Under the pieces are notes generated by a model. The model did not search any database. It saw only the letters and a list, made by a program, of their open reading frames with translations, and was not told the DNA's origin. Of a stretch of DNA of 8,648 nt, positions 6,886 through 7,634 are shown one piece after another. This DNA comes from a virus. Taxonomy: Duplodnaviria; Heunggongvirae; Uroviricota; Caudoviricetes. Location: IMG/VR virus record IMGVR_UViG_2671180417_000011. One strand, 5' to 3'. Position numbers and translations under genes: made by a program. The first letter of the stretch is position 1. The number at the start of each line of letters is the position of its first letter.

Positions 6886-6942
6886 ACCTGGAGGCACCAG
6901 GCACCGCATCAACAAAGTTCATTTGTGAAAATGGAGATAATT

Positions 6943-7164
6943 ATGATTGCTCATCACTTCGGAACTGATGAAATACCACGTCAGTGCGTGACGCCTGGCG
7001 ATTATGTTCTTCATGAAGGTCGGACATATATCGCTTCAGCAAACAATATTGAAAAGAGAAAACTCTATATTCGTAACTTCACAACAAAAACATGCATTAC
7101 CGACTGCATGATTAAAGTTTTCATCGGGCGCGATGGCTTACCCGTAAAAGCAGCGTCGTTGTGA
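6943..7164 (+). CDS. Hypothetical small protein (73 aa) in an AT-rich segment
   Basis: ATG 6943 with GGAGA (6933-6937) at 5-nt spacing; track ORF starts at GTG 6925; alternative ATG 6931. [46 protein letters not shown]... Confidence 0.55.
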
Positions 7165-7247
7165 CGAGTAATAAAATACACCTTCCATATCTGTAACAGA
7201 CAAGCCGAAATAAAACCGCATTAATTATCAATCACGGAAAAATCAAA

Positions 7248-7634
7248 ATGAAAGAACTTGCGCAAAATGAAATATTTTCCAAAACCAGTCCTGATGCAAT
7301 AAATGAACTCAAAGAAATTGCAGAACGCATCAGTAAAATATGCAAAGAATACAAAATCGACTTTGTATTTTCTTTTTCAGTGCTTACAGAAGTTGGAAAT
7401 AACGAATATAAGGACAGTCGTTTTGTTTTATGTGGGTTAAATGGCAAAACACCAAGCCCATATATTCATGCTGCACGTGAAGTTGTCAGAAGCAACATTG
7501 GAGTACAACAAATCCATACACTTGCACAGGCTCTTGAGTTTGCAAGAGAAAATTCTGAGTGCGACTGCCCTGAATGCCAGCACGAAAAGGGAAAAACAAC
7601 TCACAAAACAGCAAACCAGGCAACCTTCCACTGA
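7248..7634 (+). CDS. Hypothetical protein (128 aa) with C-terminal CDCPEC cysteine cluster, AT-rich
   Basis: ATG 7248 with weak GGAAA upstream; visibly AT-richer than the replication genes; C-terminal ENSECDCPECQHEKGK; no family recognised. Confidence 0.55.
   Translation: MKELAQNEIFSKTSPDAINELKEIAERISKICKEYKIDFVFSFSVLTEVGNNEYKDSRFVLCGLNGKTPSPYIHAAREVVRSNIGVQQIHTLAQALEFARENSECDCPECQHEKGKTTHKTANQATFH

Follow-up and report, generated by a model that had tools for sequence, protein, structure and literature searches.

The window, meaning the whole stretch of 8,648 nucleotides that was analysed, is identified by gene order and profile matches as the part of a lambdoid prophage that holds the immunity and early genes (Table 1). 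On the plus strand the order is cI, an N-like gene, small ORFs, kilR, ORF2 and a recE-like gene. A preliminary description of this DNA had treated ORF1 (here kilR) and ORF2 as a single AT-rich, moron-like cassette located in the early-left operon. Two ORFs of 73 and 128 aa are indeed present, and the gene order, with all of these genes on the plus strand, assigns them to the pL-like, early-left operon of such a prophage. The stretch 7165-7741 is 100% identical to prophages of E. coli O104:H4 genomes, and a wider interval is 98.5% identical to phage PhiR5_2.

Table 1. Position of genes and RNA features within the window.
Feature	Coordinates	Strand	Basis
DnaC-like gene	969-1709	minus	
O-like gene	1716-2798	minus	
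cII	3052-3348	minus	
cro	3465-3743	minus	
cI	3800-4507	plus	
N-like antiterminator	5117-5521	plus	phrog_271, E 4e-35
DicF-like stem-loop followed by a U-run; terminator-like	6712-6761	plus	Rfam DicF (RF00039), 29.2 bits
STnc100/PasD-like structured leader running into the kilR start	6763-6957	plus	Rfam STnc100 (RF02076), 27.8 bits
kilR, 73 aa; predicted Rac-type Kil, FtsZ/cell-division inhibitor	6943-7164	plus	NF008465, phrog_294
AT-rich spacer; possible decayed 5' ydaE remnant	7165-7247	plus	alignment with phiSTEC1589
ORF2 (ORF128), 128 aa, PHROG 2016; racC slot	7248-7634	plus	phrog_2016, E 1.9e-78
Stable hairpin, 6 nt after the ORF2 stop codon	7640-7667	plus	dG -15.6, z -4.2
RecE-family gene, N-terminal part (Exonuc_VIII N-domain)	7742-8577	plus	PF06630, 49.8 bits; phrog_607, E 6e-124

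Three more small early-left ORFs of unknown function lie at 5467-6486, from the N-like gene to the DicF-like element. Two are on the plus strand (phrog_11941 and phrog_2982), and the third, on the minus strand (phrog_2605, 6277-6486), overlaps the end of the preceding plus-strand ORF. An O104:H4 prophage that is otherwise near-identical to the window has a partly different gene set at this place.

ORF1 can be read from a GTG (6925-7164, 79 aa) or from an ATG (6943-7164, 73 aa). The ATG is preceded at a distance of 8 nt by a GGAG, and the fit of the 73-aa form to the KilR profile extends over the whole length. With the NCBIfam model NF008465, 'FtsZ inhibitor protein', this form reaches 154.9 bits (cut-off 92), residues 1-72 being aligned to positions 1-72 of the 73 in the profile, and it matches PHROG 294 (phrog_294) with an E of 8.2e-36. 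Identity to KilR of Rac-SA53 extends to 68 of the 73 residues (93%). In RefSeq neighbours the same gene is named kil or kilR, with a note that overexpression inhibits cell division, and its dN/dS of 0.07 indicates strong purifying selection. The preliminary description had recognised neither protein; by profile, ORF1 is KilR, an already known prophage division inhibitor. The early-left region had also been proposed as a home of host-takeover genes, and KilR is one such. When the prophage is derepressed, the 73-aa KilR would be expected to block FtsZ-ring assembly and cell division. Conter and colleagues reportedly described KilR of Rac in 1996 as an FtsZ-directed division inhibitor, and in 2008 Cardinale and colleagues are said to have placed kilR among the toxic genes silenced by Rho.

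In comparison with KilR of Rac, the defective prophage of E. coli K-12, ORF1 is a full-length member of the same length, differing in the last three residues (ASL vs ESW). It also has the same setting, downstream of a DicF-like/STnc100-like leader and upstream of the ydaE/racC/recE position, except that in Rac ydaE overlaps kilR, while ydaE is missing in the window. Lambda Kil is different: it has 47 aa and no sequence relation to KilR. The lambda kil gene lies just upstream of gam-bet-exo.

The region upstream of kilR is predicted to contain two structured RNA elements. The first scores below the Rfam gathering score for DicF, which is 48 (E 1.4e-4 on a 351-nt stretch), and has a stable fold (dG -24, z -4.5). 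A bona fide DicF occupies the same position in the dicB-type loci L020 and L017 (76.7 and 61.1 bits), and the corresponding DicF matches in loci L006 and L004 reach 41-43 bits. This synteny with above-threshold DicF supports a relationship, in which the element would be a diverged relative of the DicF sRNA that precedes kilR as DicF precedes dicB. The second element covers the full STnc100 model (1-206), again with less than the gathering score, here 47. In Rac-SA53, the dicB-type loci and phage D6 the equivalent regions reach 29.8-43.8 bits. In Rac-SA53 the DicF-like and STnc100-like pair stands ahead of kilR (41.1 and 43.8 bits), and in Qin-type loci such a pair, with DicF above threshold, stands ahead of dicB. 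STnc100 and PasD have been described as related prophage-encoded sRNAs (bioRxiv 10.64898/2026.05.13.724894).

The arrangement resembles the dicF-dicB operon of Qin-type prophages, which consists of a DicF-type hairpin, an STnc100-like leader, a division inhibitor, a small variable gene and a RecE-N-like exonuclease. It differs in that the inhibitor there is DicB and the small gene is DUF1482, whereas the window has KilR and ORF2, and in that the DicF-like element of the window reaches only 29.2 bits. Like dicB in that operon, kilR would be situated behind a terminator hairpin (here DicF-like) and an STnc100/PasD-like leader.

The supposed cassette had been described as bracketed by inverted repeats at 6859-6901 and the hairpin at 7640-7667. 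All of these structures are real, the left repeats being a 10-bp stem at 6859-6885 and a 5-bp stem at 6887-6901 (dG -19.4 kcal/mol, z -2.2; 5 of 200 shuffles fold equally). However, the two left hairpins are the best-aligned core of the STnc100 match, and other phages have this leader ahead of dicB or tciA, the two-hairpin core being upstream of tciA in the P1-like phage D6. The repeats thus do not mark a cassette boundary but belong to the division-inhibitor module as a conserved RNA element.

The two-hairpin core of about 55 nt (6857-6911, plus strand) is 96-98% identical in all loci examined (L006 3001-3059, L017 2501-2559, L018 1501-1553, L019 2457-2511 and L020 2450-2504). It is common to Stx-like, Rac, Qin/dicB-type and P1-like (D6) phages, in which the flanks and the downstream gene (kilR, dicB/rha or tciA) vary. 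A DicF-like hairpin and a near-invariant 55-nt core before kilR, dicB and tciA suggest a shared RNA-level control element. In the dicB-type prophage L017 a Rha-family gene is inserted ahead of dicB, and the DicF/STnc100-like block is followed by isrK (69.2 bits) and a C4 antisense RNA (78 bits) at 2642-2830. This again points to the leader region as a hotspot of insertions and RNA genes.

ORF2 is a real protein-coding gene under purifying selection, because its median dN/dS is 0.25, pN/pS is below 1 in every segment, and the frame is intact in all alleles (128-130 codons). Positive selection was considered and rejected, there being no segment with pN/pS above 1. A word-index search gave 26 homologous proteins with 58-100% identity, all from E. 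coli, and an exhaustive search of 1.84 billion representatives with the ORF2 profile returned no further family, only one repetitive false positive. At least 1000 contigs, from E. coli and Shigella sonnei, carry the exact protein, always under the name 'hypothetical', and no ORF2 was found on plasmids. It is concluded that ORF2 is an orphan whose only observed carriers are prophages of E. coli/Shigella. Its sole family match is PHROG 2016, annotated as 'unknown function', on which nothing was found in the literature; searches against Pfam, NCBIfam, PADLOC and PDB sequences gave nothing above threshold.

Several weak matches were followed up and discarded. For residues 37-99, phmmer gave a similarity to the Y-family polymerases Dbh/Dpo4 at their N-terminus (E 0.46-0.97), which disappeared with the family profile and is ascribed to chance. 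The ferredoxin-like Pfam domain DUF1281_C was hit by 8 of 15 members, at best with an E of 0.0042, and no score reached the cut-off of 22.8. Two further matches, to the designed repeat protein Ika8 (PDB profile, E 0.0048, with no single stretch significant) and to the representative P0027, a repetitive hydrophobic protein of 412 aa, are compositional artefacts. YdaE-family proteins that share a 90% cluster with the ORF2 allele P0007 have no similarity to it, and their presence there is a clustering artefact of neighbouring genes.

Within the family, residues 36-80 form an invariant core, H74 is invariant, and C32 is nearly so among the 15 full-length members. The CDCPEC cluster, proposed earlier as a possible metal site, is present at residues 105-110, but across 15-17 family members only C107 and C110 (a CxxC) are invariant in it, C105 being F or G in some alleles. 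AlphaFold2 predictions from two alignments were of low confidence (pLDDT 48.0 and 59.1), an all-helical guess with the cysteine region below 50, and a Foldseek search of these poor models against BFVD and the PDB gave nothing with E below 1.

The GC content of the interval 6925-7634 is 38.6%, while the window as a whole has 47.5%; a value this low is reached by only 0.7% of all 710-bp windows. The dip seen in the preliminary description is thus confirmed by calculation, but it is uneven. ORF2 (38.2%, GC3 29.5%) and the 83-bp spacer (32.5%) are low, with their immediate neighbours at 42-49%, whereas kilR (42.3%, GC3 39%) is not distinguishable from cI (44.6%), cro (43.7%) and the other early-left ORFs (40.5-44.6%), and is no part of the dip. 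The replication genes have 52-55%. ORF2 alleles elsewhere have a GC content of 37-43%, racC of 40.6% and ydaE of 35-40%. The description as AT-rich therefore applies to ORF2 and the spacer and not to both genes, and ORF2 by itself can still be regarded as AT-rich, exchangeable cargo of unknown function.

An intact ydaE occupies the position of the spacer in phiSTEC1589 and Rac. Local alignment of the spacer with ydaE of phiSTEC1589 gives 29 identities in 40 positions, a score reached by 19 of 1000 shuffles, and the same comparison with ydaE of Rac gives no signal. The spacer may be a decayed 5' remnant of ydaE, although the case is marginal.

The distribution of the two genes does not fit with joint acquisition. 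Among 5426 complete E. coli genomes, the kilR block (6857-7164) is present in 2056 and ORF2 in 81 (about 1.5%, including O104:H4), and ORF2 is also found in Shigella Stx phages. The N-terminus of the RecE type found in the window (coverage at least 80%) is present in 96 of the same genomes, and on these counts ORF2 tracks the RecE-like module and not kilR. The mosaic boundaries differ too: Rac-type phages have only 6857-7178 in common with the window, and phiSTEC1589 carries an intact ydaE between kilR and ORF2. In all the ORF2 loci examined the order is kilR-(ydaE)-ORF2-recE-like(690-700 aa)-gam-bet-exo, across differing immunity regions and integrases. Amino acid identity across these loci is 93-100% for KilR, 69-100% for the RecE N-terminus and 58-100% for ORF2, whose synonymous divergence is deeper than that of its neighbours (dS up to ~0.9). 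Because their distributions and mosaic boundaries differ, kilR and ORF2 are two independent genes rather than a two-gene cassette.

The hairpin after ORF2 is more stable than expected, since none of 200 shuffles folds equally. It is followed by UUUCUCCC, with no U-tract, and it was not called by the terminator scan. It is kept in eight of nine ORF2-bearing sequences (eight loci and the window), and is half-deleted in the ninth, TOE17. In Rac, racC is likewise followed at this place by a hairpin, though one of unrelated sequence (dG -18.4, z -5.3). A scan of both strands of 6400-7900 found no sigma-70-like promoter site, compared to a mean of 2.1 in shuffled sequences. ORF2 is like the morons of Hendrix in being an extra gene between elements that are adjacent in related prophages, with lower GC and a 3' hairpin, and unlike them in having no detected promoter of its own and a hairpin with no U-tract. 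The label moron-like is therefore not supported: with no promoter-like site found in 6400-7900, ORF2 is not a classical moron.

Six terminator-like sites occur in 6400-7900, where shuffled sequences lead one to expect 1.5. The RecE-like gene has terminator-like hairpins with T-runs inside its first ~35 codons, at 7805-7823 (both strands) and 7827-7849 (plus strand) (CGCCTTGGCATCAAAGGCG and GTTTTTTCTG).

The RecE-like ORF (7742-8605) is truncated by an IS5-like insertion at about 8578, and 8568-8648 matches ISKpn26-family IS5 copies. The intact homologue has 690 aa in O104:H4 and 690-700 aa in relatives, in which gam, bet, exo and int follow. One intact homologue, annotated as 'RecE family exodeoxyribonuclease' (690 aa; L003 12578-14650), lies upstream of a complete gam-bet-exo set and matches only the N-terminal Exonuc_VIII Pfam region; no solved structure was matched and no nuclease domain detected in it. 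The 690-aa protein may thus lack the nuclease domain of RecE.

The place occupied by ORF2 can be related to that of racC in Rac, where the order is kilR-ydaE-racC-recE. Between phiSTEC1589 and Rac, ydaE is clearly homologous, and so are the ribosome-binding site and start of recE (0 of 2000 shuffles reach the score), while the similarity in the spacer ahead of the slot gene is weak (38 of 2000 shuffles). The genes in between are unrelated: the hhalign probability for ORF2 against RacC is 0.1% (E 0.63), and 303 of 500 shuffles score as high as the coding nucleotides. Since ydaE and the recE start are homologous and the coding sequences between them are not, the alignments indicate that ORF2 replaces racC in Rac's slot as a non-homologous gene. 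In dicB-type prophages the Rac-type ydaE-racC spacer (ATGCCAGCAATGGCAGGG...) is directly in front of the exonuclease gene, and in Qin-type prophages a DUF1482 gene is the last before the exonuclease. The unrelated slot genes with their hairpins, and the direct contact of the Rac-type spacer with the exonuclease gene in dicB-type prophages, suggest that racC and ORF2, each with its own hairpin, are alternative insertions at one site.

Like ORF2, RacC is a small orphan between ydaE and a recE-family gene, with similarly low GC and a stable hairpin after it. Unlike ORF2 it has 91 aa, as against 128 aa, and there is no detectable homology; and the RecE-like gene next to ORF2, encoding 690-700 aa with no nuclease domain detected, is of another type than recE of Rac. 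In a genetic screen, RacC was the strongest blocker of RcaT, the toxin of retron-Sen2, and it also blocked RcaT of retron-Eco9; RecE was a trigger, and racC-recE was termed a linked blocker-trigger pair (bioRxiv 10.1101/2020.06.22.160242).

Taking these results together, the reading that we prefer, with a probability of roughly one half, is that kilR and the orphan ORF2 are independent genes of an N-dependent early-left operon, and that ORF2 encodes a small cytoplasmic protein which neutralises a host factor early in lytic growth. An N-dependent operon is suggested by the common strand of cI, the N-like gene, kilR, ORF2 and recE, by the lack of promoter-like sites, and by the DicF-like hairpin and U-run upstream; kilR and ORF2 would then be expressed from pL by antitermination. 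Our best guess for ORF2, by analogy with RacC, is an early, N-dependent effector of the counter-defence or host-directed kind, which would bind a host factor (a component of a defence system or another host protein) and neutralise it during early lytic growth. What points in this direction is where ORF2 lies, that it is small and an orphan, that its host range is narrow and that it diverges fast. Comparable in kind, but with no relation in sequence, are the small early-left proteins lambda Kil, Gam, CIII and Ral, each of which neutralises one host protein. ORF2 would be a functional analogue of RacC and not a homologue, and it has no sequence or structural similarity to RacC or to known anti-defence proteins. 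The slot position alone does not fix the function of ORF2, since other slot occupants have unrelated roles. The lack of a positive-selection signal in dN/dS also weighs against this reading.

A more specific version can be formulated, to which we would give considerably less weight. ORF2 (PHROG 2016) could be a new, non-homologous counter-defence protein in the racC slot, which neutralises an abortive-infection effector, for example a retron-type toxin, that would otherwise be set off by the phage's own recombination proteins. It counts against the preferred reading, too, that the blocker-trigger analogy may not carry over to ORF2 and the RecE-like gene, because no nuclease domain is detected in this neighbour; in addition, the recE-like gene of the window is broken by the IS element.

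An alternative which we consider about as improbable as that version is that ORF2 does not act on a host factor but is an accessory of the recombination module, binding or regulating the RecE-like 690-700-aa protein or Gam/Bet/Exo. It would explain why, in all loci examined and with differing immunity regions and integrases, the RecE-like gene follows directly on ORF2, and why the genome count of ORF2 is near that of the RecE type and far from that of kilR. However, there is no tight co-variation between the two, since P0018, an identical ORF2 allele, occurs beside RecE N-termini that are 69-80% identical to that of the window. Profile, Pfam and PDB searches gave no similarity to known recombination mediators. 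Furthermore, RecE of Rac works with RecT in recombineering and does not need RacC.

Two other proposals appear distinctly less probable again. Lambdoid early-left regions also carry exclusion genes such as sieB, and the allelic diversity and deep synonymous divergence of ORF2 (dS up to ~0.9) would suit an exclusion or defence protein that shields the lysogen from other phages. Such a protein would have to be made in the repressed prophage, where 6400-7900 offers no promoter-like site to drive ORF2 and the gene is downstream of the terminator-like DicF hairpin in an N-dependent operon; nor does ORF2 have a PADLOC match. The other proposal, which we regard as just as doubtful, is a zinc- or redox-active CxxC protein, acting as a nucleic-acid binder or small regulator. 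The invariant C107, C110 and H74 and the nearly invariant C32 of full-length members are consistent with it, as is a weak match of residues 98-123 to the zinc-binding family YnfU (13.3 bits, E 0.045). Against this, 13.3 bits fall far short of the YnfU cut-off of 36, the hhalign probability for the zinc-binding YdaE family is 0.2%, C105 of the CDCPEC cluster varies, and with a pLDDT below 50 in the cysteine region the ligand geometry is not judgeable; ORF2 is also net negative (pI 6.2), which is untypical of DNA binders.

The idea that kilR and ORF2 are a co-acquired functional pair, with ORF2 as modulator or antidote of KilR, would agree with their being same-strand neighbours in all ORF2-bearing loci, but it is very improbable and largely refuted by the distribution, in that ~96% of kilR-bearing genomes have no ORF2, ydaE can separate the two genes, Rac shares only the kilR block, and KilR is much better conserved than ORF2.

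It is concluded that kilR is a known gene, and that ORF2 is an uncharacterised member of a familiar class, the exchangeable early-left accessory genes. Among the occupants of the slot, racC is the only one with published anti-defence activity. If the counter-defence proposal for ORF2 is true, a general 'blocker' locus would exist in the slot ahead of recE-like genes, with alternative alleles that match different host defences; and if ORF2 also blocks a defence toxin, the slot would be a place to mine for new anti-defence genes.
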